Origin: Candidatus Shapirobacteria bacterium | GTDB taxonomy: Bacteria; Patescibacteriota; Microgenomatia; UBA12405 | Reading direction: 5' to 3' | Assembly (NCBI GenBank): GCA_041659325.1 | Contig: JBAZYN010000001.1 | Location: 302,819 to 366,818 of the forward strand | DNA length: 64,000 nucleotides | Shown here: positions 1 to 64,000 of the stretch, piece by piece | Layout of the letters: every line of letters begins with the position of its first letter | Numbering within the stretch: position 1 is the stretch's first letter | The notes under the pieces: model-generated | Databases searched by the model: none | What the model saw: only the letters and a program-made list of their open reading frames with translations | Told to the model about the DNA's origin: nothing | Position numbers and translations under genes: made by a program

Positions 1-475
1 CCTGGTTGGTTCCGCCGCCACCCGTAAAAATGTAGTCGACCACCCCTGGAACAAAGACATTCTTTGGGTTCAGTCTATAGCACCATCGCTCCAATCCTCT
101 AAAGCTCTAACACTAACGGGCTTCGTTCCCGACGGAGATCTCCCCCTAATCTTCAACCTCGCCACAATTTATTGTCAGCCATCCTACGCCGAAGGTTTTG
201 GCTTACCTCTTGTCCAAGCGATGAAATCCGGCTGTCCAGTCGCATATAGCCAGGAATCAAGTATCCCCGAAATTATGGACTACAATGGCGTTTTTTTTGA
301 TCCGTATTCTCAAAAATCCATGGAAAAAGCGATTGGCTCCCTTTGGAAAAGTAGAAAACTCAGACAAAAATACGCACAGCTTGGCCGCAAAAGAGCGGAA
401 ATTTTTGACTGGAGCTACACCGCCATTCAAACTCTATCCGTTTACGAATTAGCCCTAATCGACCAAAATGGGTAA
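1..475 (+). CDS. Glycosyltransferase family 4, C-terminal fragment; the 5' end lies outside the window
   Basis: Reading frame is open from position 2 with no stop. Translation ...IYCQPSYAEGFGLPLVQAMKSGCPVAYSQESSIPEI... matches the GT4 C-terminal E-x7-E/GFGLP region. Stop is TAA at 473-475. Confidence 0.6.
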   Translation, partial: LVGSAATRKNVVDHPWNKDILWVQSIAPSLQSSKALTLTGFVPDGDLPLIFNLATIYCQPSYAEGFGLPLVQAMKSGCPVAYSQESSIPEIMDYNGVFFDPYSQKSMEKAIGSLWKSRKLRQKYAQLGRKRAEIFDWSYTAIQTLSVYELALIDQNG

Positions 476-1271
476 CAAACCACACTTTCTGTCTGTCATT
501 ATCCCAATCTACAAACAGGAAAAGACTCTATTTCAAGATTTATGTAATATTAGCCAAACACTCGAAAAGATTCGCTATGACTATGAGATTATCGCCGTCG
601 TTGATGGAAAATATATCGACAAGTCTTATCAGATAGCCAAAAAATGTCAAATCAAAAAATTAAAAGTTTTTGCTTATAAAAAAAACCGGGGCAAGGGCTA
701 TGCCGTCCGTTTTGGGATGGCACACACAAGAGGGGATTATATCGCCTTTATTGACGCCGGTATGGAAATAGACCCCAACGGAATATCAATGGTTCTCGAG
801 CATATGGAATGGTATAACGCCGATATTGTTGTTGCCTCTAAAAAACATCCAGCCTCCAGAGTTAACTACCCTCTTCAAAGAAAGGTAATAAGTTTTGGTG
901 CTTTTATCGTTGCCAGAATTCTTTTGGGAATCACCATCCACGACACCCAAGCCGGTCTTAAAATCTTTAAAAGGAGAGTTCTAAAAAAGGTGCTTCCCAG
1001 ATTATTAGTTAAAAATTACGCTTTTGACCTGGAAATCCTGTCGGTCGCCAATCACCTCGGATTTAATCGTATATACGAAGCTCCCGTAAAACTAACATAC
1101 TGTTTTGATAGCTTAACTCATGCCACAGGATTAAAAACTATTTATAATAGCCTACTCGATGCCTTGGCAGTTTTTTACCGTCTCCGAATCCTGCATTATT
1201 ACGACAACCACAATAAACGGGAGTGGGTGTACGACAAAGATTTAGATATGAGAATTAATACCGGAAAATAA
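468..1271 (+). CDS. Glycosyltransferase family 2
   Basis: N-terminal LSVIIPIYKQEKTL, then DGKYID and the DAG motif, typical of the GT2 GT-A fold. Overlaps the upstream gene by 8 bp. Confidence 0.65.
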   Translation: MGNKPHFLSVIIPIYKQEKTLFQDLCNISQTLEKIRYDYEIIAVVDGKYIDKSYQIAKKCQIKKLKVFAYKKNRGKGYAVRFGMAHTRGDYIAFIDAGMEIDPNGISMVLEHMEWYNADIVVASKKHPASRVNYPLQRKVISFGAFIVARILLGITIHDTQAGLKIFKRRVLKKVLPRLLVKNYAFDLEILSVANHLGFNRIYEAPVKLTYCFDSLTHATGLKTIYNSLLDALAVFYRLRILHYYDNHNKREWVYDKDLDMRINTGK

Positions 1272-1272
1272 A

Positions 1273-2181
1273 ATGACAATTCCTATCTTTTCAATTATTA
1301 TTCCCGTCAAAGTCCCCACTCAATATCTCAAAGAAACCCTTAAAAAACTAAAAAAACAAAGTTTTAAATCCTTTGAGATACTTGTTATTACCGATAAGAT
1401 TTCGAAAAGCTCCAATCCCTCTGTTAAGCGAAATCTTGGGGCCAAAATGGCCAAAGGAAAGTATTTGGCTTTTTTGGACGACGATTCGTATCCGTCAAGA
1501 AATTGGTTAAAAAACGCCAAAATAGTTCTTGATAAAAAATCAACTGCAGCCGCTGCTTGCGGCCCCTGTTTAACCCCGCCCAAAGACACTGTTGGACAAC
1601 TTGCTTCAGGATTATTCTGGTCAAGTTGTCTCGGAAGCGGGGGAGCCGGAAACTATCGAAGCTCAGTCCAAGCTAGCCGATCGGTTGATGATTTTCCGTC
1701 AGTCAATTTGATTGTCAAAAAAAAAGACTTCGACAAAATTGGTGGCTTTAGTACCAAGGACTGGCCGGGAGAAGACACGGTGCTCTGTCTCGACTTAACA
1801 AAAAAACTCAACAAACAAATTATTTATAATCCAAAAATTGTTGTTTATCACCACCGCCGTACTATTCTCAAACCGCACCTCCAACAAATTGGCCGCTATG
1901 CCAAGATGAGGGGCTCTTTTGTCAAAAAATATCCCGCCACTAGCGCTCGTCTCGGTTATTTCCTCCCTAGCCTATTTTTTTTGTACCTCATTTCACTCCC
2001 AATCCATCGCTTCCTTTTTCCCCTCTATCTGTACCTACTTGCCCTTTTTATAACTTTTTTAATTTTTATTAAAAACAAAAGTAATCCCACAGCCTCCTTT
2101 TTGGCCATAATCATCACCCCGATTACCCATCTTTATTATGGTATTTTATTCCTAGTCGGCCTTTTTCAAAATGAAAAATAA
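1273..2181 (+). CDS. Glycosyltransferase family 2 with C-terminal transmembrane segment
   Basis: FSIIIPVKVPTQYL ... AFLDDDSYP (DxD) motif. Hydrophobic C-terminal ~70 aa. Antisense ORFs 1320-1624 are judged spurious. Confidence 0.6.
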   Translation: MTIPIFSIIIPVKVPTQYLKETLKKLKKQSFKSFEILVITDKISKSSNPSVKRNLGAKMAKGKYLAFLDDDSYPSRNWLKNAKIVLDKKSTAAAACGPCLTPPKDTVGQLASGLFWSSCLGSGGAGNYRSSVQASRSVDDFPSVNLIVKKKDFDKIGGFSTKDWPGEDTVLCLDLTKKLNKQIIYNPKIVVYHHRRTILKPHLQQIGRYAKMRGSFVKKYPATSARLGYFLPSLFFLYLISLPIHRFLFPLYLYLLALFITFLIFIKNKSNPTASFLAIIITPITHLYYGILFLVGLFQNEK

Positions 2182-3604
2182 ATTCTCTGTCTCCATCTCT
2201 TACCCACCTCTCGAATCTACCAAAGGTTCAGCTTTTTTATCTCAAAACCGCCAATTTCAATGGGGCAACACCGACAGTGTTTTCTATCCGGTAATTATGG
2301 CCTATGCCGCAACTCTTCTAAAAAAAAACGATTATCAGGTTTTTTGGGATGATGCCATTGCTGAAAGACTCAGCTACCAAAAATGGCTTTCCAGGCTAAT
2401 CACCAACAATCCCGACCTGGTTGTAATCGAAACAAAAACTCCGGTTGTCAAAAAACACTGGCAAATAATCAGTGATATCAAAGATAAACTCCCAAAAACT
2501 AAAATCGCCCTTATCGGCGACCACGTAACCGCCCTGCCGCAAGAATCGATATCAAACTCCAAAGTTGATTTCGTCTTAACCGGCGGTGATTACGATTTTA
2601 TGATTCTAAACCTCGCCGATCAGTTATCAAAAAATATATGCCCCGACAAAATCATTAACACACCACCCACTCATCTTCTCACTCCCCTCCCCATAATCGA
2701 CCGCAATCTGACCAAATGGTATCTATACTCCCAAAACAATACCAACTACAAATACAAACCCGGCGCCTACATAATGTCTGGACGTGATTGTTGGTGGGGC
2801 CGATGCACCTTCTGCTCCTGGACAACTCTTTTTCCGGGTAGAAATTACCGTCGTTTTTCTGTCGACCACACCATTAAGGAAATTAATAACCTGGTCGTAA
2901 ATTTTGGAGTAAAAGAAGTCTTTGACGATGCCGGGACTTTACCGGTAGGGGACTGGCTTCAAAAACTGTGTCAAAGACTAATCGATACAGGACTAAACCG
3001 AAAAGTCAAAATTAGCTGCAATATGCGATTTGGTGCGTTAACCGAAAATGATTATCAGCTGATGGCCAAGGCCGGTTTCAGGTTTATCCTCTATGGCCTT
3101 GAATCTGCCAACCCTCAAACTATCGAAAAAATTAACAAAAATATAGATCTGAAAAATGTCCCCAAAGAGCTTAAAATCGCCAAAAAATGCGGTCTGGAAC
3201 CCCATATAACCATAATGATCGGTTATCCCTGGGAAACAAAAAAAGATGCCCAAAACACTCTCAATTTTGCCAAAAAGTTATTTCGCCAGGGAATAGTGGA
3301 TAGTATGCAGGCCACCATTGTCATTCCCTACCCCGGAACCCCTCTTTTTGACTATTGTCAAAAAAATAATCTGTTAAATACTAAAAACTGGGATAATTTT
3401 GATATGCGCCAACCGGTTATAAAAAGTCCGATTTCTTCTGATGACCAGAAACAAATTGTTCAATCTTTATTCAAGGGCATCATCACTCCCAGATTTATGT
3501 TTAACAAAATTAAATCAATAAAGTCCCTCTCTGATCTAAAATTTCTTCTGGGATATACCTACAAGTTTTTCCGAAAGCTTAAAGACTTCAAAAAAGATTT
3601 ATGA
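2171..3604 (+). CDS. B12-binding-domain radical SAM protein (class B-like), putative sugar C-methyltransferase or related
   Basis: N-terminal Rossmann-like B12-binding region (VVIETKTP...IALIGDHVTALP) followed by a Cys cluster, SGRDCWWGRCTFCSW (Cx4Cx2C). 477 aa. TGA stop overlaps the next ATG (ATGA). Confidence 0.55.
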   Translation: MKNKFSVSISYPPLESTKGSAFLSQNRQFQWGNTDSVFYPVIMAYAATLLKKNDYQVFWDDAIAERLSYQKWLSRLITNNPDLVVIETKTPVVKKHWQIISDIKDKLPKTKIALIGDHVTALPQESISNSKVDFVLTGGDYDFMILNLADQLSKNICPDKIINTPPTHLLTPLPIIDRNLTKWYLYSQNNTNYKYKPGAYIMSGRDCWWGRCTFCSWTTLFPGRNYRRFSVDHTIKEINNLVVNFGVKEVFDDAGTLPVGDWLQKLCQRLIDTGLNRKVKISCNMRFGALTENDYQLMAKAGFRFILYGLESANPQTIEKINKNIDLKNVPKELKIAKKCGLEPHITIMIGYPWETKKDAQNTLNFAKKLFRQGIVDSMQATIVIPYPGTPLFDYCQKNNLLNTKNWDNFDMRQPVIKSPISSDDQKQIVQSLFKGIITPRFMFNKIKSIKSLSDLKFLLGYTYKFFRKLKDFKKDL

Positions 3605-4614
3605 CACCGCTTGTTTCAATTGTTATTCCTACTCTAAATTCCCAAGCAGTTCTCTCCGATTGTCTGAAATCCATTAAAAAACAAATCGGGGTATCCCTAG
3701 ATATAATTATCGCCGACGGGGGATCAACTGATAAAACGATTTATATTGCCAACCAATACAAATGTCAAATTGTTAAAAACCCTCTCAAAACCGCCGAATC
3801 CGGAAAAGCTATTGGCCTAAAACATGCCTCCGGTGAATTTGTTGGTTTAATCGATTCCGACAACATCCTTCCAAAATCCAATTGGCTCAAAAGCATGATT
3901 TCTCCTCTAATCAGAGATAAAGCCCTAATAGGTTCCGAACCGTGGAAATTTACTTACCGAAAAAATGGCGGTTTTATCGAAAGATATTCGTCACTTATTG
4001 GCGCCAACGACCCATATGCATTCGTTACCGGCATATATGACAGAAAAAATTATATCAATCATAAATGGACGGAGATGAACGTCAAAACAACCAATTATCC
4101 CAAATATCTAAAGCTCAAACTTACCAAAAATCAACCAATCCCAACAATTGGCGCAAACGGTACAATTTTTCGAAGTTCTTTCATAAAAAAGCACTTCTCC
4201 GGTGATTATTTGTTTGACATAGACGTCATCAGTCTCGCCATTACTAAAACCAACTTACCACTCTACTTTGCCAAAGTAAAAATCGGCATTATCCACACCT
4301 TTTGTGAATCCTCAATTTCAAAATTTATCAAAAAACAACAACGTCGGCTCACCGATTATTACACACTAAAAGAAATAAGGGCATTTAATTGGGACCAGAC
4401 CAATCGATTTGGTATTGTTAAATTTACTTTCTACACTTGCTGTATAATCTGGCCAATTGTGGACTCATTCCGTGGATTTTTTCATAAGCCTGATTTTGCC
4501 TGGTTTTTTCATCCATTCGCCTGCGTAATAACCTTATTTATATATACTCAAATAACAATCAAAAATAAAGTCGGATTATTAAAACCCCTAGATCGTCAAC
4601 AATGGCAACAGTAG
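3601..4614 (+). CDS. Glycosyltransferase family 2
   Basis: VSIVIPTLNSQAVL ... IIADGGSTDKT ... DSDN motif; hydrophobic C-terminus. Confidence 0.6.
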   Translation: MTPLVSIVIPTLNSQAVLSDCLKSIKKQIGVSLDIIIADGGSTDKTIYIANQYKCQIVKNPLKTAESGKAIGLKHASGEFVGLIDSDNILPKSNWLKSMISPLIRDKALIGSEPWKFTYRKNGGFIERYSSLIGANDPYAFVTGIYDRKNYINHKWTEMNVKTTNYPKYLKLKLTKNQPIPTIGANGTIFRSSFIKKHFSGDYLFDIDVISLAITKTNLPLYFAKVKIGIIHTFCESSISKFIKKQQRRLTDYYTLKEIRAFNWDQTNRFGIVKFTFYTCCIIWPIVDSFRGFFHKPDFAWFFHPFACVITLFIYTQITIKNKVGLLKPLDRQQWQQ

Positions 4615-5609
4615 ATATCCTTATCCCCACCTACAACGGTGCCATCTTTGTCAAAGATACTTTACAAAGCATCTTGTCCCAAAGTTACCCAGATTTTCGT
4701 ATCTTAATCTGCGATGACGCTTCTAAAGACGACACTCTCGGGATAATCAAAAAGATAAATGACAAAAGAATTGCAGTAATAAATAATAAAAATAACCTTG
4801 GCTACTCCGCCAACTTAGAAAGGGCCAGAAAACATGCTACCGCCGAATTTATTTATTTAATGGGTCAAGATGATATTATGGCAAGAGACACTCTGAAAAA
4901 TACCATTAAAGCCTTCTCACTCTCGTCGGATATCGGAGCAGTCACCCGTCCGTATTTCTGGTTTGATAAAGACATTCGTCTTCCGGTTCGGGCCAAAAAA
5001 AAGCTTGATCCGACAAACGATACTATTGTCAACATCACCGATAATCCCTTCAGAGTCATCCGCGTTTTTGAAACCCTTGATCAACTTTCAGGCCTCGCTT
5101 ATCGCCGCCGATTCATGGATTTACCTTTCCATCCGGATATTTTCCCCTGCCACATTTACCCCTTTGCCTCTATTTTCAAAAAACATCCGATAGTATTTTT
5201 AAAAGACTATAATATTGCTGTCCGAATCAGTAGCAGCCAAACCCGAAGCCTATCCTCAATTTACGATAAATCACCACTCTTAAGTTGGATCGAAATGGTT
5301 AAATCTGTTTATTCAGAAAAAGAATATCATCCCGTCCAAAAATATTTAATCAAAAATTTTATAACCAAAAACTATATCGGTTTGGTTCAGATAAGAAACT
5401 ACGCCAAATATCGGTATTTAATCCGGGAAATTTGGTATCTCATTAAATTTAATCCCCACAATCTTCTCAACCCATTATTCTGGTTTTTTTCCATCGGCTG
5501 TATAATTTCTCCACCATTTTTATTGATCCCCATGGTCGAATGGTATAAAGAAGCTATCTATTCAAAGACTCTGACAAAAATTAGCTTTGAACACAATAAT
5601 TTTCAATAA
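4602..5609 (+). CDS. Glycosyltransferase family 2
   Basis: VDILIPTYNGAIFV ... ILICDDASKDDT, GT2 hallmarks. Confidence 0.65.
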   Translation: MATVDILIPTYNGAIFVKDTLQSILSQSYPDFRILICDDASKDDTLGIIKKINDKRIAVINNKNNLGYSANLERARKHATAEFIYLMGQDDIMARDTLKNTIKAFSLSSDIGAVTRPYFWFDKDIRLPVRAKKKLDPTNDTIVNITDNPFRVIRVFETLDQLSGLAYRRRFMDLPFHPDIFPCHIYPFASIFKKHPIVFLKDYNIAVRISSSQTRSLSSIYDKSPLLSWIEMVKSVYSEKEYHPVQKYLIKNFITKNYIGLVQIRNYAKYRYLIREIWYLIKFNPHNLLNPLFWFFSIGCIISPPFLLIPMVEWYKEAIYSKTLTKISFEHNNFQ

Positions 5610-5614
5610 ATACC

Positions 5615-6235
5615 ATGTTTTTAGAAAAATTTAGACCAAATTTTTTGTACACAGAACTAAAACGAATTTTTCCAAAATACTTTAGTGTTGTTGACATCGG
5701 TTGTGGACCAAATTCAATTCTTAGATTGTTTAAAAATAACATCACATACTCCTATGGTTTTGAAATACACCCACAGTCAGTTTATACATCAAAAGCAAAC
5801 AACATTCATTCAGAATACATCCTGGATAATGTTTTGAATCTTAAAAAACATTTTAAAAAGAAGAGCATCGACATCGCATTCTGCCTCGACACAATAGAAC
5901 ATTTAAAAAAAGTTGATGCAATAAAACTTATAAAATGTATGGAATATATCGCCATTAAAAAAATAATAATTCAAACCACTAACGGGTATATTCATCAAAA
6001 TACTTATAACAATAATTGTTACCAAAAACATCTCTCAGGTTTCGACACGAAATATTTTCGAGAAAAGGGTTATAAAGTTTTAGGGATAGATGGTCCATAT
6101 TTTTTACGGGTTACTAAAAATAAAACAATAAAAGAAAGAAATATTTTCACCTCTATTTTGGCAAATCTACTCGATCCAATTTTTAGGTATTTTCCCAACC
6201 ACTCATTAAACTTTCTGGCTTACAAAAATGTTTAA
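5615..6235 (+). CDS. Class I SAM-dependent methyltransferase
   Basis: VVDIGCGPNS (motif I, GxGxG-like) and a downstream acidic motif (CLDTIEHL). Confidence 0.55.
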   Translation: MFLEKFRPNFLYTELKRIFPKYFSVVDIGCGPNSILRLFKNNITYSYGFEIHPQSVYTSKANNIHSEYILDNVLNLKKHFKKKSIDIAFCLDTIEHLKKVDAIKLIKCMEYIAIKKIIIQTTNGYIHQNTYNNNCYQKHLSGFDTKYFREKGYKVLGIDGPYFLRVTKNKTIKERNIFTSILANLLDPIFRYFPNHSLNFLAYKNV

Positions 6236-6809
6236 TATAATTTTTGGGATTTATAATTATTTTATTAAAAAAGGCTTTTATCACTTCGGGAAAAATTCTT
6301 CAATTAAACCTTTTTTAAATACAACAAATAAAAAATACATTTCTATCGGAGACAATGTTTCTATCGGTTCCTTTGCATGGATCGGAGTGGACACCGACTT
6401 TGCCGGCATAAAGTGTAAATCCAAAAACAAAATAAGACTAAAAATAGGTGACAACTCCACCATAGGTAACAACTCAATCATCACAGCAAACAATTCTGTT
6501 TTAATCGGGAAAAATTGTATTTTATCCGCCTACGTTTTTATTTCCGACCATGTCCACGAATATAACAATATTTCAAAAAATTTAAATCAACAACCACTAA
6601 GCGAAAACGGCAGTGTAATCATCGGCGATAATGTATTTATTGGGACAAAAGCCTCGATTATGCGTAATGTTACTATTGGCGAAAGAAGCGTAATCGGAGC
6701 AAACACCGTTGTAACCAAAGACATTCCTTCATATAGTGTAGTGGTAGGAAATCCGGGAAAAATCATCAAAAGATATGATTTTATTAAAAAGGATTGGATA
6801 AAATTTTAG
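6228..6809 (+). CDS. Hexapeptide-repeat (LbH) acyl/acetyltransferase
   Basis: Repeated [LIV]G-x-x-x-x hexapeptides: ISIGDNVSIGSFAWIG ... IGDNSTIGNNSIIT ... IGDNVFIGTKASI ... IGERSVIGANTVV. Confidence 0.65.
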   Translation: MFNIIFGIYNYFIKKGFYHFGKNSSIKPFLNTTNKKYISIGDNVSIGSFAWIGVDTDFAGIKCKSKNKIRLKIGDNSTIGNNSIITANNSVLIGKNCILSAYVFISDHVHEYNNISKNLNQQPLSENGSVIIGDNVFIGTKASIMRNVTIGERSVIGANTVVTKDIPSYSVVVGNPGKIIKRYDFIKKDWIKF

Positions 6810-6816
6810 AAGCGGT

Positions 6817-7491: not shown

Positions 7492-7496
7492 AAGCA

Positions 7497-9154: not shown

Positions 9155-9163
9155 ACATCCCAA

Positions 9164-46265: not shown

Positions 46266-46266
46266 T

Positions 46267-56992: not shown

Positions 56993-58212
56993 TGGGTACA
57001 AATACAAAACGAAAAATTTTGATGATTACCCCTTATATCCCCAGACTTTCTCAATCAGGCGGTCAAAATAGCTCTTATTATTCTATAAAATACCTTGCCA
57101 AAGATAATGACATTACCCTCATATGTTTTAGTAGGGATGCCGAGGGACTCGAAGAAGTTAAACCTTTTTGTAAAAAGGTCGTCGTCGTCAAGAGAGGCAA
57201 AACCTGGGATCTGAAAAAAATTCTTTCTACCGGTTTCGGGCCTTACCCGTTTTTGGTTACAAACTACATCTCTGCTGAATTCAAAAACGCCATCCAATCA
57301 GAGCTAAACAACAATCGATTTGACCTGATCCACTGCGATTGTTTTTACCCAATGCCAAACATTCCCAAAACCGATATCCCCATCGTCCTGGTTGATTTAA
57401 CAATAGAATATGGAGTCTATCAGCACTTTGTAGAAAATTTAAAAGGTATAAAAAAAATATTTGCTCCATTTCTTTGGATTGATGTCCTAAAACTGAAATA
57501 CTGGGAAACTCACTACTGGAAAAACACCCATACGGTTGTTGCCTTCGGCCACGATGATCAAAAATTAATCTCCCGTGTTACCGGCCGAAACGATATTCAG
57601 GTTTTCCAAAACGGAGTTGACAAAAAATTCTATGATTCGCCGCCAAAATCAAAAAAAAGCAATCAACCTTCGATGATCTTTGGGGTTTCCAATATGAAGT
57701 GGATGCAAAACCGAGAATCCGTCGACATGATAATCAGAGACATTTGGCCCAAAATTAAAAAAGAAATCCCCTCATGTCAGCTTTATATCATCGGTCGTTT
57801 TGCCCCCGACTTTTATGGACACCTCCAGTCAGAAGACATTATAGTCACCGAAGCAGACCACGACGGCGAACCAAAAGACCCTCAATATTACTACCACCTG
57901 TCCTGGATTCTTCTGGCTCCGATGGGCAGTGGGGGTGGAACCAGAAATAAATTTCTGGAGGCCATGGCCTGCCGATTACCAATCGTTACTACTCCGGAGG
58001 GGATGGGGGGAATTGCAATTGAAAATTATAAACACGCCATCGTCTGTGACTTAAAAGATATCACCACAGAGGCCATAAAACTTCTCCGTAACAATAAAAA
58101 AAGATTGCAAATTGGTATTGAGGCCAACAAGCTCATCAAAGAAAAATATTCCTACGAGCAAAGTGTCCGGGAGTTAAACCAAATTTATGAAAATATCACT
58201 CGAAAAAAGTAA
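56992..58212 (+). CDS. Glycosyltransferase family 4
   Basis: MITPYIPRLSQSGGQNSSYYSIKYL is the GT4 N-domain. 406 aa. Confidence 0.55.
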   Translation: MGTNTKRKILMITPYIPRLSQSGGQNSSYYSIKYLAKDNDITLICFSRDAEGLEEVKPFCKKVVVVKRGKTWDLKKILSTGFGPYPFLVTNYISAEFKNAIQSELNNNRFDLIHCDCFYPMPNIPKTDIPIVLVDLTIEYGVYQHFVENLKGIKKIFAPFLWIDVLKLKYWETHYWKNTHTVVAFGHDDQKLISRVTGRNDIQVFQNGVDKKFYDSPPKSKKSNQPSMIFGVSNMKWMQNRESVDMIIRDIWPKIKKEIPSCQLYIIGRFAPDFYGHLQSEDIIVTEADHDGEPKDPQYYYHLSWILLAPMGSGGGTRNKFLEAMACRLPIVTTPEGMGGIAIENYKHAIVCDLKDITTEAIKLLRNNKKRLQIGIEANKLIKEKYSYEQSVRELNQIYENITRKK

Positions 58213-59095
58213 CCATCCGATACTATCCATAGTAATTTTAAATTACAATTCCGGTGAATACCTAAAAAACTGTCTCTTGAGTCTGTATCACTCAACACTA
58301 GCCGCTCAAAATTTTGAAATCATAGTCGTGGACAATTCCTCGACTGACAATAGTATCATCCAGGCCCAAAAAATTTCCGTCCCACACACGAAATTCCTGA
58401 AATTAAAAACAAATAGAGGATTTTCTTTTGGGAACAATAGGGGAGTTGAAGCAACAAACCCTAAAAGTAATTTTATTCTCTTTTTAAACCCCGACACAAT
58501 TGTCAAAGAAGCAACTCTCGAAAAAATGATCGGATTTTTTGAAAAAAATCATCAGGTTGATGCGGCTACCTGTAAAATAATTCTGGCAAAAACCAATCAA
58601 ATTCAACCAGAATGTCACCGGGATTTCCCGACTCCATTAAACGCTTTCATGCATTTTGGCGGTATTTCCAGTCGACAATATTTTATGGAATATCTCGACT
58701 TTTCAAAAACTCAAAAAATTAATGCCTGTGTCGGGGCATTTTTTATGATCAAACGGGAAATCGGAAACAAAGTCGGCTGGTGGAATGAAAAATATTTTAT
58801 GTACGGCGAAGATTTGGACTTTTGTTTTAAATTAAAACTAAAAAAATATAATTTGTTTTATTACCCCAAAACACATATTACTCATTTTCAGGGAATCTCG
58901 TCGGGAATTAAAAAGACCGTCTCTGCCGCCTCCCGCGCCACCAAAGTCCGGTCCGCTCTTGCCACCACCAACGCAATGCGCATTTTCTATCAGGAAAACC
59001 TTTTTTCGAAATACTCACTTTTCACCCAAACCCTCGTCCTTGGCGGAATAAAACTATTGGAAATATTTAGAGTCTTTAAAGCAAAATACCTATGA
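58187..59095 (+). CDS. Glycosyltransferase family 2
   Basis: LSIVILNYNSGEYL ... IIVVDNSSTDNS ... FLNPDT. Confidence 0.65.
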   Translation: MKISLEKSNHPILSIVILNYNSGEYLKNCLLSLYHSTLAAQNFEIIVVDNSSTDNSIIQAQKISVPHTKFLKLKTNRGFSFGNNRGVEATNPKSNFILFLNPDTIVKEATLEKMIGFFEKNHQVDAATCKIILAKTNQIQPECHRDFPTPLNAFMHFGGISSRQYFMEYLDFSKTQKINACVGAFFMIKREIGNKVGWWNEKYFMYGEDLDFCFKLKLKKYNLFYYPKTHITHFQGISSGIKKTVSAASRATKVRSALATTNAMRIFYQENLFSKYSLFTQTLVLGGIKLLEIFRVFKAKYL

Positions 59096-60207
59096 AACAC
59101 CTGGTAATCGATGCCAGACTATATGGCAGCACCCACACCGGTATCGGCCGATATACCAAAAATCTTCTTGTTGCTCTGACAAAAATTCCCGACTTTCAAA
59201 AAGTCAAAACCACTTTAATTGTCTATCCTGAGCTCCTGGATGAAATCAAAAAAGACCTGGGCACTAATTTTTCATACGTCATCACAAATATCCGACATTA
59301 CTCGCTCCAGGAACAGTTATTTCTGCCCTTTTTGCTATACCGGCTCAAACCTAACTTAGTCCATTTTACCCACTTTAATAAACCCCTTTTATATTTTGGA
59401 AAATCACTAGTTACTATCCACGACCTTATCAAACACTTTTTCCATGGCAGACAAGCCACGACTAAAAATTCATTTATGTATTGGCCAAAATATCTGGCCT
59501 ATCTTTTGGTAACCCACATTGTCATAAAAACCAGTGCCATTATAGTTCCGAGTAATTTTTGGAGAAATTATCTAATCAAAAATTATCATGTCTCCCCAAA
59601 AGACATAACTACCACCTACGAAGCCGTCGACCCGAAATTTATTACCAATTACGGATTACCGATTACTAATTACAAAAATTATATTCTGTATACCGGCAAC
59701 CTTTATCCCCACAAAAATATCCGGATAGTAATCGAAGCTCTGAAAAAAATACCTGACTTAAAATTAAAAATCATTTGCGCCAGAAGTATATTTTCTCAGC
59801 GGGCCCAACGACTAATTCAAAAATACCAAATAGAGCAGCAAGTAGAATTTTTGGGCTATGTACCGGACAGCGATTTTAAAAATATTTACCAACATGCTCT
59901 AGCTCTGGTTCATCCTTCTCTTATGGAGGGCTTTAGCCTGACCGGGCTAGAAGCAATGGCCCTGAATTGTCCGGTAATTTCCTCAAACGCCAGTTGCCTC
60001 CCCGAGATTTATGGAGACAAATCAGTCCTCTATTTTGATCCCTACGATCCCGATGATCTGGTTATAAAAATCCAACAACTCCGGTCATCCGACAGGCTTC
60101 GTCAAAAATTGATCAAGTGGGGGCATCTACAAGTTGCCAAATATTCCTGGTCAAAAACAGCCATTCAAACACTAGACCTTTACTCAAAGATACTTTCTAC
60201 AAAATGA
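59092..60207 (+). CDS. Glycosyltransferase family 4
   Basis: ALVHPSLMEGFSLTGLEAMALNCPVISSN. Confidence 0.65.
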   Translation: MKHLVIDARLYGSTHTGIGRYTKNLLVALTKIPDFQKVKTTLIVYPELLDEIKKDLGTNFSYVITNIRHYSLQEQLFLPFLLYRLKPNLVHFTHFNKPLLYFGKSLVTIHDLIKHFFHGRQATTKNSFMYWPKYLAYLLVTHIVIKTSAIIVPSNFWRNYLIKNYHVSPKDITTTYEAVDPKFITNYGLPITNYKNYILYTGNLYPHKNIRIVIEALKKIPDLKLKIICARSIFSQRAQRLIQKYQIEQQVEFLGYVPDSDFKNIYQHALALVHPSLMEGFSLTGLEAMALNCPVISSNASCLPEIYGDKSVLYFDPYDPDDLVIKIQQLRSSDRLRQKLIKWGHLQVAKYSWSKTAIQTLDLYSKILSTK

Positions 60208-61238
60208 AAACACCCAAGGTTGCCCTGTTTTATGATTGGCTCAACCAATGGGGAGGAGCCGAAAGGGTACTTTTAGATCTCCATAAACTATACCCAGACG
60301 CGCCTATTTACACCTTGGTTTACAATCCGGAAAAAACCGCTTGGCTCAAAAACGCAAAAGTTATTACCCCAGATTTTTTGTTCAAATACCCTTTTTTTTA
60401 CCCCTTAATGGCGCAACAGCTCGATTTTTCCGATTATGATATTGTTATCTCGACCACCTCATATTTTGGTCATTGCCTCCTGACCAAACCACCCACCAAA
60501 TATTTTTGTTATTGTCATACTCCAAACCGCTATGTCTGGCATAAAAATTATCTAAAGTTCTATCGCCCTACCGATTATATTTATGGTCAACGACCGGATT
60601 TTTTTATCGCCAGTTCGAAAAATTCACAACAACGGATTTTAAAATTTTACAATCGGGATTCAACACTAATTTATCCCGGCATTGATACCAATAAATTTGT
60701 CCCCAAAGTTACAGATTACAGATTACAGATTACAGATTACTTCCTCATTGTTTCCCGTCTGGTCCCTCACAAAAAAATTGATCTGGCCATTCGCGCTTGT
60801 CTTCAATCTCACCGGCATTTATACATCGCCGGCACCGGCCGTTGTCTTGGACAACTTACTGCCCTGGCTTCCCAAAGCCCATTAATCAAATTCCTGGGTT
60901 ATGTTTCCGAAAAAAAATTACTTAATCTATACCAAAACTGCCGGGCTCTTATTCATCCCCAAGAAGAAGATTTCGGACTTACCGCCCTTGAAGTTCAAAG
61001 TTGCGGTAAGCCAGTAATTGCTTTCAACCAAGGTGGCAGCCTGGAAACAATAATAGATGGGAAAACCGGATTATTTTTCAATAATCAATCCACAGAATCG
61101 CTGACGGAGGCTCTGGAAATTTTTGACTCGTATAATTTCAAGCCAGCAGATTGCCGGCGCAACGCCCTCAGATTTTCAACCCAATCATTTATGCTAAACT
61201 TTAGAAATTACATAAACTCAGTATGCAGTTACCGGTAA
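60204..61238 (+). CDS. Glycosyltransferase family 4, containing a heptanucleotide tandem repeat (candidate phase-variable)
   Basis: Start set at the ATGA overlap (MKTPKVALF). ALIHPQEEDFGLTALEVQSCGKPVIAFN. (TTACAGA)x4.6 at 60709-60740. Confidence 0.6.
   Translation: MKTPKVALFYDWLNQWGGAERVLLDLHKLYPDAPIYTLVYNPEKTAWLKNAKVITPDFLFKYPFFYPLMAQQLDFSDYDIVISTTSYFGHCLLTKPPTKYFCYCHTPNRYVWHKNYLKFYRPTDYIYGQRPDFFIASSKNSQQRILKFYNRDSTLIYPGIDTNKFVPKVTDYRLQITDYFLIVSRLVPHKKIDLAIRACLQSHRHLYIAGTGRCLGQLTALASQSPLIKFLGYVSEKKLLNLYQNCRALIHPQEEDFGLTALEVQSCGKPVIAFNQGGSLETIIDGKTGLFFNNQSTESLTEALEIFDSYNFKPADCRRNALRFSTQSFMLNFRNYINSVCSYR
60709..60740. repeat. Perfect heptanucleotide tandem repeat (TTACAGA)x4 plus TTAC inside the GT4 coding sequence
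   Basis: Direct reading: gTTACAGATTACAGATTACAGATTACAGATTACttcc. Confidence 0.9.
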
Positions 61239-62332
61239 CCCCTAACGACATTTATATTCTAATTCTCTGTGGCGGATCAGGCCCCAGGCTTTGGCCCTTA
61301 TCCCGTGCCGACTCCCCGAAACAATTTTTAAAGCTGTTTGGGCCTAAATCAATTCTCGAACAAACCATCTCCCGCTCCAGAAAAATCACCAGAAAAGAAA
61401 ATATTTATCTAATTACCAACCATAAATATCTTGACAAAGTTCTCAAAGAAACAGCCGGAAAAGTCCTCCCCAAAAACATCCTTTCTGAACCCACAAAGAA
61501 AAACACCACCATGGCGCTAATTTATGGAACTATCGCTATAAAAAACATTAACCCCAATGCCATTATTACCAGTTTTCCCTCCGACCACCTCATCCTTGAT
61601 ACCAATCTTTTCAAAACCACCATCCTCTCTGCCGCTAAACTGGCAAAAAACACCAATTCTATCGTTGCCATAGGCACAAAACCAACCAATCCCAATCCTT
61701 CTTACGGCTACCTTATCCCCAAAGAACAAAAAAAGGGGGTTTTTACAGTTTCAAAATTCGTTGAAAAACCGGATTTTGTACAAGCCCAAAAACTAATCAG
61801 CCAGGATGCTTATTGGAATTCAGGTATTTACACTTTTTCGGCAGAAACATTTGTTAGTGAAATCGCCAAAAACCAACCCGGATATTTCAAGATCCTTAAT
61901 CTCATCGAAAACAATTTACACCACAAAAAAATAATCACCAAAGCTTATCAGCTTTCTGAAAATCTCTCCTTTGATATTGCCATTTCCGAAAAAACAAAAA
62001 ACCTTTTAATGCTTCTGGCTACCTTTGATTGGAGTGATATCGGCGAATGGGGCTCAATTCATAACCGTCTGAAGAAAGACCAAGACGATATTTCAATACT
62101 AAACAAAAAAACTCAAACTATTAGCCATAACTCAAAAAACTGTCTTGTTTCAGGATTAGACAAAAAATTAATCGGGCTTGTCGGAGTCAAGAACCTCGCC
62201 ATTATCGACACTCCTGATGCACTACTTATATGTTCGTTGCAAAACAGCTCAAACGTCCGGGATTTAGTGGGTAAAATTGTTAAAAGCAACAAAACCATTA
62301 GTTATTTTTTGACTAAAAGTTATAATGATTAA
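61223..62332 (+). CDS. Mannose-1-phosphate guanylyltransferase-like nucleotidyltransferase (ManC/GMP family)
   Basis: ILCGGSGPRLWPLSRADSPKQFLKL is the canonical N-terminus of GDP-mannose pyrophosphorylases. 369 aa. Confidence 0.65.
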   Translation: MQLPVTPNDIYILILCGGSGPRLWPLSRADSPKQFLKLFGPKSILEQTISRSRKITRKENIYLITNHKYLDKVLKETAGKVLPKNILSEPTKKNTTMALIYGTIAIKNINPNAIITSFPSDHLILDTNLFKTTILSAAKLAKNTNSIVAIGTKPTNPNPSYGYLIPKEQKKGVFTVSKFVEKPDFVQAQKLISQDAYWNSGIYTFSAETFVSEIAKNQPGYFKILNLIENNLHHKKIITKAYQLSENLSFDIAISEKTKNLLMLLATFDWSDIGEWGSIHNRLKKDQDDISILNKKTQTISHNSKNCLVSGLDKKLIGLVGVKNLAIIDTPDALLICSLQNSSNVRDLVGKIVKSNKTISYFLTKSYND

Positions 62333-62999
62333 CGAAAAGTCGCACAAGCTCTTTTTAAAACAACGGATTGAACTATTTAATCTCTTCAAACGATCGATCG
62401 ACATTTTCGGATCCATCTTTTTGATTTTTCTGTTTTCCCCTATAATGCTTGTTACCGCTGTTTTGGTAAAGCTATCCTCCCCCGGTCCGATCTTTTTTAA
62501 GCAACAAAGGGTAGGTAAAAGTAGTAAACCGTTTCATATGTTCAAATTTCGGTCAATGTACATAGGCGACAATGATAAACGACTAAAAGAAAACTATCCT
62601 GATTTATGGGACAAATACAAAAAGTCAGGCTGGAAACTACCCATGAACGAAGACCCTAGAATTACACCAGTTGGCAAAAAGATTCGCTCACTTACTATCG
62701 ATGAATTCCCCCAACTCTTTAATGTATTAAAAGGCGAAATGAGTTTAACCGGCCCCCGCGCCTACCGGGAAGAAGAACTAAAAGAATATGAGGCAAAATA
62801 CCCTCTCACCAAAAAATATATAGATGATATCCGGTCCGTGAAGCCAGGAATCACCGGTCCGTGGCAAACATCCGGTCGAAATGCTCTAAATTTTGAAGAC
62901 CGGGCCAAACTCGACTCTCATTATGTGAGAACCCTGTCTGTCAGGCAGGAACTCCTGATTCTGATAAAAACTCCTCTGGCTATGATTTCGCGCTGGTAA
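62325..62999 (+). CDS. Polyprenyl-phosphate hexose-1-phosphate transferase (small WbaP/PglC-like 'bacterial sugar transferase')
   Basis: Single N-terminal TM. PGPIFFKQQRVG ... DEFPQLFNVLKGEMSLTGPR ... KPGITGPWQ, hallmark motifs of initiating sugar-phosphate transferases. Confidence 0.75.
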   Translation: MINEKSHKLFLKQRIELFNLFKRSIDIFGSIFLIFLFSPIMLVTAVLVKLSSPGPIFFKQQRVGKSSKPFHMFKFRSMYIGDNDKRLKENYPDLWDKYKKSGWKLPMNEDPRITPVGKKIRSLTIDEFPQLFNVLKGEMSLTGPRAYREEELKEYEAKYPLTKKYIDDIRSVKPGITGPWQTSGRNALNFEDRAKLDSHYVRTLSVRQELLILIKTPLAMISRW

Positions 63000-63028
63000 A
63001 AGAAAATATGTTAGTATAGACTCATAGA

Positions 63029-64000
63029 ATGGAAGAAATTATCAACCTCGCCCCAACCGTCGATACAGAAAGCAAACCGGTGTCTAAACAACCGGGCCAA
63101 AAGCTTCTAAAACAAAAGACTGTCCTCCAAAAAATCCTAACCGTTTTATTTTCCATAATTTGTGTTTTGTTAATTATCATTACTATTACAGGTACTCTGG
63201 CTTTCTTTTTTGTCTATGTCCCCGGTAAAAAGCTTTACGACAAGGTTGACCTGGCAAAAACCGAAGTTGCAAACCTCCAACTTGCTCTATCAGAAAAAGA
63301 CCTAAAGAGAGGACAGGAGAGTTTAGTAGCTCTAAGAAGTCAGCTCTCGACCATTGAATCCGACTATAAAAAACTTTCCCATCTCAGTAAATTACCCTAT
63401 TCAAAAGAGTATTATGCCGACGGTGAACAGGTCATTATTATCGCCAAAGAAGCTCTTGATACAGGTGAAATTATTATAAAAGCGATAGAACCCTACACTG
63501 ATTTTCTCGGGCTAAAAGGTGCTTCCACCGACAGCGGAAAAACCACCGAGGACAGAATCGCCTTTTTAACCCAATCCGTTGAAGGGTTAGTCCCTCATTT
63601 AAAAACAATCGAAGAAAAAGTAGGCAAAATTGAAAGCTCGCTTAATAAAATTGATCCTAACCGTTATCCCGACGAATATAAAAATATAAAAATAAAATCC
63701 ACCCTTCTTAAGGCCAAAGAAACTATTTCAGAAACCCGAAAATTAATCAGAGACGGTAGCCCGATCCTCACCAAAACCTCCTGGCTTTTGGGCAAAGATA
63801 AACCCCGAACCTACTTAATGATTTTTCAAAATGATGCCGAGCTTCGGCCCACCGGTGGTTTCTGGACCGCCTATGGATTATTGAAAGTCACCGACGGCAA
63901 GTTTACCCCCTTGGGTTCCGACGATATTTATTCGCTTGATGCCAAGTTCAACAGCACGATTCCCGCTCCCCGGCCGATAAAAGCCTATCACATCAACGTC
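63029..64000 (+). CDS. DUF4012-domain protein, N-terminal part (the 3' end lies outside the window)
   Basis: Open frame from ATG 63029 to the window end (324 codons). N-terminal TM helix. MIFQNDAELRPTGGFWTAYG matches the conserved DUF4012 core. Confidence 0.5.
   Translation, partial: MEEIINLAPTVDTESKPVSKQPGQKLLKQKTVLQKILTVLFSIICVLLIIITITGTLAFFFVYVPGKKLYDKVDLAKTEVANLQLALSEKDLKRGQESLVALRSQLSTIESDYKKLSHLSKLPYSKEYYADGEQVIIIAKEALDTGEIIIKAIEPYTDFLGLKGASTDSGKTTEDRIAFLTQSVEGLVPHLKTIEEKVGKIESSLNKIDPNRYPDEYKNIKIKSTLLKAKETISETRKLIRDGSPILTKTSWLLGKDKPRTYLMIFQNDAELRPTGGFWTAYGLLKVTDGKFTPLGSDDIYSLDAKFNSTIPAPRPIKAYHINV

Follow-up and report, generated by a model that had tools for sequence, protein, structure and literature searches.

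Gene content and modular organization of the locus

The stretch of DNA analyzed here (the window: 64,000 bp, positions 302,819 to 366,818 of contig JBAZYN010000001.1, assembly GCA_041659325.1) carries an envelope-glycan locus of a Candidatus Shapirobacteria metagenome-assembled genome (MAG), a member of the Microgenomates within the candidate phyla radiation (CPR). The source contig is 573,898 bp long; the locus, which begins upstream of window position 1 and ends at approximately 65.0 kb, takes up at least 11% of it. Overall, our analysis makes it probable that this is a mosaic super-locus of at least 65 kb, composed of standard envelope-glycan modules and not serving one pathway. Along the window we distinguished a left arm followed by a Wzx segment (1-11.6 kb), a block around the exporter genes wzm and wzt (13.3 to about 28.4 kb), two cassettes that each combine genes for a lipid-linked sugar donor with a GT-C-fold glycosyltransferase (28.4-40.8 and 40.8-47.2 kb, the latter followed by further genes to 49.8 kb), and a right arm (49.8-65 kb).

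This modularity was read from gene order in relatives, which are denoted by locus labels (L143 is Ca. Shapirobacteria GCA_016188545.1, and L144 a contig of another sample). The right arm, approximately 14 kb long, is syntenic in seven MAGs at about 45-81% amino-acid identity, in the order GT4, GT4, acetyltransferase, 184-aa protein, GT2, Wzy_C-like protein, an optional PMT-like GT-C, GT4, GT2, GT4, GT4, ManC, phosphoglycosyl transferase and DUF4012 protein. The left arm (5.6 kb), whose gene order is GT4, GT2, GT2, B12-type radical S-adenosylmethionine (SAM) enzyme, GT2 and, in a single case, one more GT2, was recovered in synteny in five metagenome contigs. Between the two arms, the interior (5.6-47 kb, of lower GC content) contains every one of the seven methyltransferases and all but one of the five GT-C candidates; none of its genes has an ortholog within ±10 kb of the anchor genes of relatives, and its cassettes recur elsewhere. 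The 12-gene block 28411-40824 is found whole in L144 (50-79% identity) with other neighbours, while wzm, wzt, the 438-aa GT2, the 411-aa GT4, the Glyco_tranf_2_4-type GT2, the putative GT-C 23988, the MBOAT and AlgX-like genes and the SDR-GFO fusion are rearranged in GCA_016188545.1 at 40-76% identity.

Altogether, 63 open reading frames (ORFs) were called in the window, with a coding density of 96%; all were scanned with Pfam and additionally compared with the curated families of NCBIfam. Naming genes by their first window position, as in Table 1, there are 21 Leloir glycosyltransferases (GTs), namely 12 of GT2 type (468, 1273, 3601, 4602, 7467, 16612(-), 20695, 32494(-), 41209(-), 48817, 53171, 58187) and nine with a GT4/GT1 fold (2-472, partial; 9164, 21965, 47184, 49788, 50918, 56992, 59092, 60117), besides one phosphoglycosyl transferase (Bac_transf, 62325). 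All seven class-I methyltransferases scored above the Pfam gathering scores (5615, 6817, 8396, 23197, 30625(-), 33419(-), 37471(-)). This recount with hidden Markov models (HMMs) reproduced a first-pass annotation of the same DNA, which had listed about 21 GTs, seven methyltransferases and a tailoring set: the methyltransferases lie where it had placed them, the third being ORF 8396 with an ATG at 8441, and its two hexapeptide acetyltransferases (6228, 52031), GNAT (34168(-)) and pyruvyltransferase (15408) were found by Pfam as well. It had also described nearly every ORF as glycan-related in a CPR-like, DUF4012-bearing organism making a very large investment; indeed, only 38427, 48377 (DUF192) and 52624 are without a glycan-related assignment, all three in conserved synteny inside the clusters, the organism is a Ca. 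Shapirobacteria with DUF4012 at 63020, and the extent of the locus given above agrees with the third statement. Missing from that list were a second radical SAM protein (17679), a GDSL protein, Wzm/Wzt, the Wzx-like flippase, GalE, ManC, a DegT aminotransferase, WbqC, a tandem GH130-like pair, the SDR-GFO fusion and two pseudogenes.

Genes are arranged in nine strand blocks, with long co-directional runs and overlapping start and stop codons. Freshwater CPR genomes have on average approximately 15 carbohydrate-active enzyme (CAZyme) genes (PMC9166423); because the window alone contains 21 GT2/GT4 genes, the concentration of GTs is far above chance and the organism well above the CPR average. 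The density of tailoring enzymes, previously called striking, is typical for the lineage, since such glycan neighbourhoods are common in relatives, with 2-7 methyltransferases per 17-22 kb. Recent duplication was rejected as the origin of the many GTs and methyltransferases, as all paralog pairs are at most 47% identical.

Table 1. Annotated features of the 64-kb window in order of position (TM, transmembrane; aa, amino acids; AF2, AlphaFold2).
Feature	Position	Strand	Evidence
GT4, C-terminal part; gene begins ~0.6 kb upstream of window	2..472	+	Glycos_transf_1 70.3 bits
GT2, left arm	468..1271	+	Glycos_transf_2 87 bits; 84% identity in L086
GT2, two C-terminal TM helices, left arm	1273..2181	+	Pfam; PDB sequence matches cover generic GT2 N-terminal part only
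B12-binding-type (class B) radical SAM, left arm	2171..3604	+	Radical_SAM 49.7 bits
GT2, left arm	3601..4614	+	75 bits; 54-61% identity in 5 contigs
GT2, last gene in common with L086	4602..5609	+	88.6 bits; 75% identity, L086 only
Class-I methyltransferase 1	5615..6235	+	Methyltransf_11 38.3 bits; motif VVDIGCGPN
Hexapeptide acetyltransferase, WbbJ/WcaF-like	6228..6809	+	Hexapep 65.7 bits; WbbJ 97 bits, under cutoff
Class-I methyltransferase 2	6817..7491	+	Pfam; 32% identity to 5615
GT2, two C-terminal TM helices	7467..8444	+	Pfam, TM prediction
Class-I methyltransferase 3	8396..9154	+	Methyltransf_11 48.9 bits; independent gene call starts at ATG 8441
GT4	9164..10321	+	87.1 bits
Wzx-like MOP flippase, ~10 TM	10308..11579	+	Polysacc_synt_3 23.6 bits, gathering score 23
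~9-TM membrane domain with C-terminal TPR; probable PMT_2-like GT-C	11514..13223	-	TPR matches
Wzm, ABC-2 permease	13344..14153	+	ABC2_membrane 57.4 bits; 76% identity in L143
Decayed 23S_rRNA_IVP-family (four-helix-bundle) gene, ~14218-14590, between wzm and wzt	14158..14673	+	homology to L143 gene
Wzt, ABC ATPase	14572..15411	+	ABC_tran 83.5 bits; 72% identity in L143 (251 aa there)
Polysaccharide pyruvyltransferase	15408..16649	+	PS_pyruv_trans 90.4 bits
GT2 (Glyco_tranf_2_4/GT92-like)	16612..17496	-	51.8 bits; 52% identity L143, 43% L144
Second radical SAM, canonical CNLCCHYC at residues 14-21	17679..18725	+	Radical_SAM 36.7 bits; NCBIfam weak
GDSL/SGNH esterase or acyltransferase	18722..19357	+	Lipase_GDSL 34.4 bits
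Pseudogene, ~300 aa	19469..20360	-	in-frame TAG 19829-19831; frameshifted N-terminal TM anchor
GT2, 438 aa	20695..22011	+	67.8 bits; 40% identity L143
GT4	21965..23200	+	Glyco_trans_1_4 72.4 bits; 41% identity L143
Class-I methyltransferase 4, Cys-rich N-terminus	23197..23991	+	Methyltransf_11 51.2 bits, residues 126-175
Polytopic protein, putative GT-C, CPR-restricted family	23988..25772	-	8 TM helices
MBOAT O-acyltransferase	25787..27190	+	99.6 bits; 70% identity L143
AlgX/AlgJ-like SGNH partner, signal anchor, DFHW	27196..28398	+	ALGX 67.8 bits; 69% identity L143
GT-C-fold transferase, N-terminal beta-sandwich (residues 38-162, CBM6/36-like) after TM1	28411..30624	-	AF2 + Foldseek
Class-I methyltransferase 5	30625..31374	-	Pfam; 75% identity L144
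DegT/DesI/PseC-type sugar aminotransferase	31376..32497	-	DegT_DnrJ_EryC1 313 bits
GtrB/ArnC-type polyprenyl-phosphate glycosyltransferase: GT2, two C-terminal TM helices	32494..33432	-	PDB match
Class-I methyltransferase 6, weak NodS-like match	33419..34159	-	Pfam; 78% identity L144
GNAT acetyltransferase	34168..34623	-	Acetyltransf_1 53.9 bits
Tandem cytoplasmic GH130/GH32N-like paralogs (34630-35583, 35590-36549)	34630..36549	-	weak Pfam matches
WbqC-family protein	36566..37270	-	WbqC 232.6 bits; 79% identity L144
Class-I methyltransferase 7	37471..38430	-	Methyltransf_11 79 bits; motif VLDLGCGTG
165-aa protein, no family, beside SDR-GFO gene	38427..38924	-	46-51% identity L143, L144
Fused SDR (epimerase/dehydratase-like) + GFO/IDH/MocA oxidoreductase	38917..40824	-	Pfam; 48-50% identity L143, L144
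DUF2304 small 3-TM protein (GacJ/Rv3632 family)	40848..41183	-	61.9 bits
Short GT2, 223 aa; probable polyprenyl-phosphate sugar synthase	41209..41880	-	Glycos_transf_2 80.3 bits
FAD/NAD-binding oxidoreductase (PRK07208-like)	41914..43320	-	Amino_oxidase 61.8 bits; NF005548 345 bits, cutoff 389
Small EamA-type membrane protein, candidate carrier-lipid flippase subunit	43326..43691	-	EamA 28.3 bits (gathering 28.2); 3 TM
GT-C-fold transferase; homologs carry DUF6311	43702..45297	-	AF2 + Foldseek
UDP-glucose 4-epimerase GalE	45261..46265	-	TIGR01179 336 bits, cutoff 262 exceeded
LPG_synthase_TM/flippase-like membrane protein	46267..47217	-	102.7 bits; TIGR00374 27.9 bits, under cutoff
GT4	47184..48398	+	88.1 bits
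DUF192 protein	48377..48844	+	88.7 bits
GT2	48817..49791	+	65.4 bits
Two GT4 at right-arm start (49788-50921, 50918-52018)	49788..52018	+	95.9, 114.1 bits
Hexapeptide acetyltransferase	52031..52627	+	Pfam; 66-78% identity in relatives
184-aa 2-TM protein, no family	52624..53178	+	56-62% identity in relatives
GT2	53171..54127	+	73.9 bits
Polytopic Wzy_C-like protein; polymerase, ligase or O-oligosaccharyltransferase	54112..55527	+	orthogroup Pfam matches
PMT_2/PMT-family GT-C	55511..56992	+	PMT_2 27.0 bits (gathering 26.1)
GT4 (56992-58212), GT2 (58187-59095), GT4 (59092-60207), GT4 (60117-61238)	56992..61238	+	Pfam
Mannose-1-phosphate guanylyltransferase, ManC-like	61223..62332	+	NTP_transferase 111.4, ManC beta-helix 43.1 bits
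Initiating phosphoglycosyl transferase	62325..62999	+	Bac_transf 190.9 bits
DUF4012 membrane-anchored protein, N-terminal half of 660 aa	63020..64000	+	Pfam; ends ~65011

Integrity, composition and boundaries of the locus

A chimeric assembly, visible as discordant coverage or tetranucleotide signal, had been named as one of two findings that would undo the first-pass annotation, and it was run as a test together with the related possibility of a recent horizontal acquisition. In favor of such an artifact or import, GC content, 0.40-0.42 in the arms, is only 0.31-0.39 in the interior (0.354 for the interior vs approximately 0.40), and an independent assembly of the data is broken at approximately 11.94 and 57.7 kb. 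Nevertheless, that assembly (Logan, SRR18595301) is collinear with the window over -41..11958, 11931..57717 and 60711..68110, and one of its contigs, of 45.8 kb, bridges 11.9-57.7 kb, including both transitions between interior and arms. One of its breaks is inside a TPR region and the other inside a conserved GT4 motif; both contig joins are crossed by intact ORFs that match homologs collinearly and over their full length. Moreover, tetranucleotide correlations between 8-kb segments are 0.89-0.98; the GC skew at third codon positions (GC3 skew), taken on the + strand, is -0.40 in + genes and -0.39 in - genes and alike in arms and interior; and the codon usage of interior (+) genes correlates with that of arm genes at r = 0.89, against a within-class baseline of 0.87-0.91. 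The independent assembly, the synteny in relatives, the intact join-spanning proteins and the uniform GC3 skew thus led us to reject the chimera, and an artifact or recent import is in our view extremely improbable. We thus regard the window as genuine chromosomal DNA of one organism, and the match of GC3 skew and codon usage to the flanks argues that its genes are long-standing residents and not a recent import. Strand asymmetry is very pronounced: the C-rich strand, which the usual rule would make the lagging strand, carries 63% of the coding bases.

At the 3' side, the DUF4012 gene ends at approximately 65.0 kb; next come recO, an unassigned gene and the gene of a class-II aminoacyl-tRNA synthetase. 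At the 5' edge, the window opens within a GT4 gene, and relatives sharing the left arm carry tandem PMT/PMT_2/YfhO-type GT-C genes and a GT2 gene upstream of it; for both reasons, the locus probably extends leftward past the window. In L089 (232-8552), five tandem GT-C paralogs of 540-591 aa (PMT/PMT_2/YfhO-like) lie directly upstream of the conserved left arm, so that arrays of extracytoplasmic glycosyltransferases may be characteristic of such loci. No Rfam RNAs or tRNAs were found in the window, which is thus not a tRNA-bounded island, and no long repeats, insertion sequence elements or recombinase genes mark cassette borders within it. Many of the nearest relatives have been deposited as 'uncultured Gammaproteobacteria' or 'uncultured Pseudomonadales' in third-party annotation (TPA) records (L004, L007, L008, L013, L014, L016-L020 and others). 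Since their genes are 50-77% identical to, and syntenic with, Shapirobacteria and Woesebacteria loci, these record titles look like taxonomic mislabels.

Left arm and Wzm/Wzt block

The GT4 gene that opens the left arm has orthologs with 61-82% identity in L084-L089, the full-length ones encoding 363-365 aa. Within this arm, 2171 had been described as a B12-binding radical SAM protein: the protein as a whole aligns full-length to B12-radical SAM families in NCBIfam, but its B12-binding domain taken alone scores 24.9 bits, under the gathering score of 32.1. Among curated families, HpnJ scores best (155 bits, residues 34-434), the next best reaching at most 81 bits, and its orthologs are syntenic in six contigs at 53-82% identity. 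The likeness to HpnJ and class-B radical SAM enzymes lies in the full-length alignment and in the position among GT2 genes, as hpnJ adjoins the GT2 gene hpnI; the differences are a score far from the cutoff of 577, the lack of hopanoid genes here and the Cys motif, CWWGRCTFC (residues 207-215), which has the spacing Cx4Cx2C and not the canonical Cx3Cx2C. HpnJ presumably acts in hopanoid cyclitol-ether formation and is not known as a methylase, and the C-methylase role proposed earlier for 2171 may be one option only, a weak one. Both 1273 and 7467 were considered as lipid-phosphate sugar synthases on account of their C-terminal TM helices, but were rejected, as their match to GtrB/ArnC covers the generic GT2 core only. 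The Wzx-like gene 10308 is placed by our analysis 40 kb from the phosphoglycosyl transferase gene. As a module, the region from 1 to 11.6 kb would combine GT4-GT2-GT2-B12 radical SAM-GT2-GT2 with the methyltransferases, the acetyltransferase and the Wzx-like flippase.

Adjacent Wzm and Wzt genes, as expected for an ABC-transporter-dependent pathway, open the next block, and the 438-aa GT2 and 411-aa GT4 co-occur with wzm and wzt in L143. The true start of Wzt is probably some 28 codons 3' of 14572. No initiator of the WecA/TagO type (PF00953) was detected by Pfam among the 63 ORFs of the window. The pyruvyltransferase 15408 has the PS_pyruv_trans domain typical of CsaB-type enzymes, and in methyltransferase 23197 the alignment to the domain is limited to its C-terminal half. 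The N-terminal 400 aa of 11514 have 5861 relatives; all seven sampled carry TPR tails, and two of the seven match PMT_2 at 27.1 and 20.9 bits, at or near its threshold.

The family of 23988 comprises only 12 detected homologs, none with a Pfam match, and those with a source name are from CPR; it has an invariant D91-D92, and hhalign related it to the 28411 family with 78% probability (E 1.7e-5). In L143, where its counterpart is 60% identical, it also stands beside MBOAT and AlgX genes. The first-pass annotation had described the latter as an MBOAT with a DHHW partner: the adjacent MBOAT/AlgX-family pair is there, and is kept in L143, but the motif of the partner is DFHW. As in the MBOAT and AlgX/AlgJ-type pairs, the neighbour is a secreted, SGNH-like protein with an N-terminal TM anchor and a D-x-H-W motif. 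The pair thus resembles AlgI/AlgJ/AlgX of alginate, PatA/PatB and DltB/DltD in that an MBOAT gene adjoins that of a signal-anchored AlgX-family protein with a D-x-H-W block, and differs from them in the DFHW form and in being conserved next to a CPR-specific putative GT-C. On this basis, the block (13.3-~28.4 kb) would produce an ABC-exported chain with its own GT2 and GT4, pyruvyltransferase, methyltransferase and probable GT-C, and MBOAT and the AlgX-like protein would O-acylate this chain outside the membrane.

Two pseudogenes lie in this block. In the decayed 23S_rRNA_IVP-family gene the reading frame is shifted once, and a TGA replaces the conserved Gly of NIAEG. Its counterpart in L143, equally placed but intact, shares 76% identity with it and is accompanied by a Fic/RhuM gene (L143 18662-20192). 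The decayed gene is flanked by tandem arrays of an octamer in inverted orientation, TTAGAACT x4.5 and GCTCCAAA x10.9 (14158-14193 and 14587-14673). An invertible promoter at 14.2-14.6 kb was considered and rejected, as the segment between the arrays is the decayed gene itself and no recombinase was found; recoding of UGA to Gly was rejected as well, given that TGA terminates 16 of the 60 complete ORFs and that the gene is also frameshifted. The other pseudogene (19469..20360) occupies the sole long ORF-free stretch (1.3 kb, 19357-20695), with no Pfam match and no detectable family.

Donor-plus-GT-C cassettes

The first-pass annotation had listed five GT-C membrane enzymes and had proposed that they transfer sugars from lipid-linked donors. 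All five candidates are polytopic, with 8-9 predicted TM helices, and only 55511 has a direct family match, to PMT_2. For 23988, 28411, 43702 and the membrane domain of 11514, neither Pfam (E<=5), NCBIfam (E<=1) nor phmmer against PDB sequences returned a match, and a profile of the 28411 family did not match PDB sequences either. Only structure prediction with Foldseek linked 28411 and 43702 to GT-C enzymes. Their AF2 models, built on homolog alignments and compared with the PDB, gave a pLDDT of 79.3 for 28411, with matches to DPY19, PglB, ALG12, STT3 and ArnT (best E 8.2e-6), and a pLDDT of 87.9 with a pTM of 0.89 for 43702, whose top 15 PDB fold matches are all GT-C (best E 1.4e-3). Overall, the best folds for the two are DPY19, PglB, AglB, STT3, ALG9/12, ArnT and AftA, at modest TM-scores of 0.3-0.5. 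Of the five GT-C candidates, 28411, 43702 and 55511 are supported, while 11514 and 23988 are only suggestive.

As for the donors, 32494 matches GtrB (5EKP, E 1.3e-53) and ArnC (E 2.9e-34) over its full length. In the second cassette, the DUF2304 gene 40848 lies 25 bp from the short GT2 gene 41209, the arrangement of the GacI/GacJ pair, in which the DUF2304 partner complexes with the GT2 and stimulates it (10.1101/180810). Compared with NCBIfam, 41209 scored 70 bits for PpgS and 58 bits for AglJ, both under the cutoffs. This GT2 and DUF2304 pair stands beside GT-C 43702, and the neighbourhood of epimerase, short GT2, DUF2304 and a 43702 homolog recurs in L145 and L146. Of the parts of a three-component system, the polyprenyl-phosphate glycosyltransferase is thus represented by 32494, and a nearby GT-C-fold gene by 28411 and 43702 (on predicted models); no ORF of the window matched the GtrA family. 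Taken together, GT-C transfer from lipid-linked donors is well supported.

In the cassette at 28.4-40.8 kb, 28411 is 60% identical to its counterpart in L144. No other part of the protein is as widely shared as its N-terminal beta-sandwich: about 35 of 45 homologs align to nothing but this region (17-36% of the query), and the nearly invariant columns are nearly all within it, so that it looks like a mobile extracytoplasmic module carried on different membrane domains. The aminotransferase 31376 scored 281 bits for DesI and 221 bits for PseC, and the SDR-GFO fusion 78 bits for UDP-GlcNAc 3-dehydrogenase, all under the cutoffs. The two GH130-like proteins are 45% identical to each other and 73-75% to those of L144, and reach 44-45 bits for beta-1,2-mannobiose phosphorylase, against a cutoff of 450. 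Within the cassette, only two methyltransferases and the GT2/DegT pair are more conserved than WbqC and the GH130-like pair (73-79%, L144); this conservation suggests a possible synthetic, phosphorylase-like or transferase role, and not a degradative one. Our literature search found no functional study of WbqC. In the proposed sequence of steps, the SDR-GFO fusion would oxidize a nucleotide sugar, DegT would transaminate it, GNAT would probably N-acetylate it and the methyltransferases would methylate it; 32494 would then load the modified sugar onto polyprenyl phosphate and, after flipping, GT-C 28411 would transfer it to the acceptor.

This cassette resembles the Arn (ArnB/C/E/F/T) and Gtr (GtrA/B/V) systems in having a DegT-type aminotransferase and a GtrB/ArnC-type GT2 adjoining a GT-C; a small EamA-type protein is a further likeness, but one located in the neighbouring cassette at 40.8-47.2 kb. 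In contrast to these systems, GT-C 28411 is outside Pfam PMT_2/ArnT and has the N-terminal beta-sandwich, three methyltransferases, GNAT, WbqC and two GH130-like proteins belong to the cassette, and a lipid A acceptor is not expected in a monoderm-like CPR cell. Moreover, Pfam found neither the formyltransferase/decarboxylase domains of ArnA nor the polysaccharide-deacetylase domain of the deformylase ArnD among the ORFs of the cassette, and for this reason it is not an Arn member; by analogy, it may work like Arn. The cassette at 40.8-47.2 kb, in turn, would work like GacIJKL or PpgS/Rv3632, with GalE supplying the sugar and the short GT2 with DUF2304 loading the carrier, after which the small EamA and flippase-like proteins would flip the donor and GT-C 43702 would transfer the sugar.

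Right arm

The two GT4 proteins at the start of the right arm have orthologs of 54-61% identity in L011, L012 and L015, and the GTs at 56992..61238 have syntenic orthologs of 49-71% identity. The nearest relatives of phosphoglycosyl transferase 62325 are in Shapirobacteria and Woesebacteria MAGs (67-77% identity). The polytopic protein 54112 is not a GT-C; Wzy_C was matched by six of the eight members of its orthogroup, which comprises the window copy and seven relatives (E up to 0.01; best 2.1e-6), not by the window copy, and the L012 ortholog, the single one given an individual score, reached 27.8 bits, below the gathering score of 31.7. A profile of its orthologs matched no PDB sequence. 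The family has a Pro/Thr-rich low-complexity loop of about 40 residues, followed by a strongly conserved block (VARSGEIRFNVEWPRA...GTGLGS...TDNDYLR). PMT/GT39, the protein O-mannosyltransferase domain, is found in 55511, whose orthogroup matches PMT_2 (best E 1.6e-11) and PMT (3.2e-8) in three of four members; in the syntenic right arm this gene is present in L008, L011 and L014 and absent in L007, L010, L012 and L015. DUF4012 is overrepresented in CPR and associated with capsular polysaccharide and exopolysaccharide (CPS/EPS) clusters (PMC6744442); here, no Wzz/PCP family member was detected by Pfam among the 63 ORFs, and the DUF4012 protein occupies the slot beside the phosphoglycosyl transferase. 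We propose that 62325 would start a polyprenyl-PP-linked oligosaccharide, that five GT4, two GT2 and the acetyltransferase would extend it, with ManC supplying GDP-mannose, and that 54112 would polymerize or ligate the chain outside the membrane, with the DUF4012 protein as an accessory.

Comparison with known systems

The closest analogues that we could identify are the rhamnose-rich cell wall polysaccharide (Rha-CWPS) loci of Gram-positive bacteria and the hypervariable region 2 (HVR2) island of SAR11. In lactococci, enterococci and streptococci, one locus with a conserved and a variable half encodes the Rha-CWPS backbone, which an ABC transporter exports, together with separately assembled side chains and three-component decorations; GT-C enzymes join these chains outside the membrane (PMC9574508). 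The present locus shares with Lactococcus cwps, Enterococcus epa and Streptococcus gac/rgp the Wzm/Wzt proteins, GT-Cs, the GT2 and DUF2304 pair typical of GacI/GacJ-type donor synthesis, conserved and variable parts and secondary modifications, and has in addition the marginally assigned Wzx-like and Wzy_C-like proteins (PMC9574508, 10.1101/180810). It differs in that neither rmlABCD, rhamnosyltransferase signatures, a TagO/WecA-type initiator nor an LCP ligase was detected in the window, and in being about two times longer, with seven methyltransferases, a B12-radical SAM protein, DUF4012 and a CPR host. The SAR11 HVR2 contains 50-83 genes, commonly for glycosyltransferases, methyltransferases and unknown membrane proteins (PMC3448164). 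Here, too, as in such islands of streamlined bacteria, a small genome holds a GT- and methyltransferase-dominated region of conserved position and apparently variable content; in contrast to HVR2, variability was deduced from few relatives and not from metagenome recruitment, large parts of it, namely the two arms and entire cassettes, are kept at 50-80% identity, and the flanks are recO and a tRNA synthetase gene instead of rRNA genes. Overall, this is a large yet recognizable composite envelope-glycan locus, which extends known biology to CPR and is not a new kind of system.

Assembly model and alternative explanations

While gene families, folds, synteny and modularity were read directly from the data above, we infer how the steps are ordered, which substrates and which acceptor are involved, and whether one wall-linked heteropolymer, as in lactococcal and enterococcal Rha-CWPS, or separate products are made. 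In the mosaic reading that we favor, backbones would come from two sources, namely the right arm (62325 and the Wzy_C-like protein) and the Wzm/Wzt block, and would then be O-acylated by MBOAT/AlgX and pyruvylated. Several points weigh against this reading. Product, substrate and acceptor are predictions from the genes, the left boundary is outside the window, and the variability of the interior was judged from few relatives, each covering only ±10 kb around an anchor gene. Furthermore, the window holds a single initiating transferase, and neither an LCP-type ligase nor a polysaccharide co-polymerase (PCP/Wzz) was found in it; the Wzx assignment of 10308 is marginal (23.6 vs 23 bits), that of 54112 to Wzy_C is sub-threshold and comes from its orthologs, the window copy itself having no match, the GT-C assignment is no more than suggestive for 11514 and 23988, and only two polyprenyl-phosphate sugar synthases were found for the five GT-C candidates.

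The first-pass annotation had assigned all 21 GTs and the tailoring enzymes to a single pathway toward one hyper-modified surface polymer, which we now consider unlikely. Contiguous genes, the 96% coding density, the co-directional blocks with overlapping start and stop codons and the one initiating phosphoglycosyl transferase per 64 kb would all agree with it, and lactococcal Rha-CWPS, in which ABC-exported and separately flipped chains of one locus are joined, offers a precedent (PMC9574508). Nevertheless, two distinct export systems are present (Wzx-like 10308 and Wzm/Wzt 13344/14572), together with the Wzy_C-like 54112; the sub-clusters are independent, differently combined in other genomes and of separate histories, the right arm occurring in seven relatives, the left arm in five contigs and the 28.4-40.8 kb cassette elsewhere; and the window is divided into nine strand blocks with two pseudogenes. 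One final product, obtained by extracytoplasmic joining of separately made chains, would be possible, and it is in this form, by analogy with Rha-CWPS and through several assembly lines instead of one, that the one-polymer idea may stay alive.

The acceptor of the chains could also be mainly protein, with the right arm working as an O-glycosylation system around a PglL/PilO-like 54112 and with PMT-like GT-Cs acting on S-layer proteins or pilins. Such an arrangement seems to us improbable. The Wzy_C family, matched by six of the eight members of the 54112 orthogroup, includes oligosaccharyltransferases of the PglL/PilO type; yet Wzy_C cannot tell a polymerase from a ligase or an oligosaccharyltransferase. 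Likewise, the 55511 orthogroup matches both PMT and PMT_2 and a ManC gene is nearby, but the PMT-like gene is absent from four of seven orthologous right arms and, since PMT_2 also covers ArnT-like transferases acting on lipids and glycans, protein glycosylation by the GT-Cs of the window would be a weak proposition. Pilin glycosylation has been predicted, not shown, for Saccharibacteria within the CPR (PMC11623550), which favors a protein acceptor; against it, no pilin, S-layer or sortase-substrate gene was found in the window or 3 kb downstream.

Implications for Shapirobacteria

The lower-GC interior with its swapped cassettes suggests diversification of the surface 'glycotype'. Going further, and on a doubtful footing, Shapirobacteria and related Microgenomates might possess a lineage-specific, heavily methylated multi-chain wall glycopolymer or protein O-glycan, joined or decorated outside the membrane by the 23988, 28411 and DUF6311 GT-C families, with DUF4012 replacing PCP/LCP and the HpnJ-like radical SAM protein changing a carbon skeleton (C-methylation or carbocycle), while cassette swapping would set host-attachment and phage-receptor specificity.

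Our work resolves a list of GTs into units, i.e., a lineage-conserved core by recO, two donor-plus-GT-C cassettes, for both of which lipid-phosphate-sugar intermediates are predicted, and an O-acylation pair. It also brings forward components worth further study, namely three GT-C families without curated annotation, an HpnJ-like radical SAM gene among GT genes, and WbqC with the twin GH130-like genes. CPR bacteria have lost most biosynthetic pathways, yet at least 11% of this 574-kb contig serves surface glycans, which must be central to the episymbiotic lifestyle, whether for host attachment, phage avoidance or envelope integrity.

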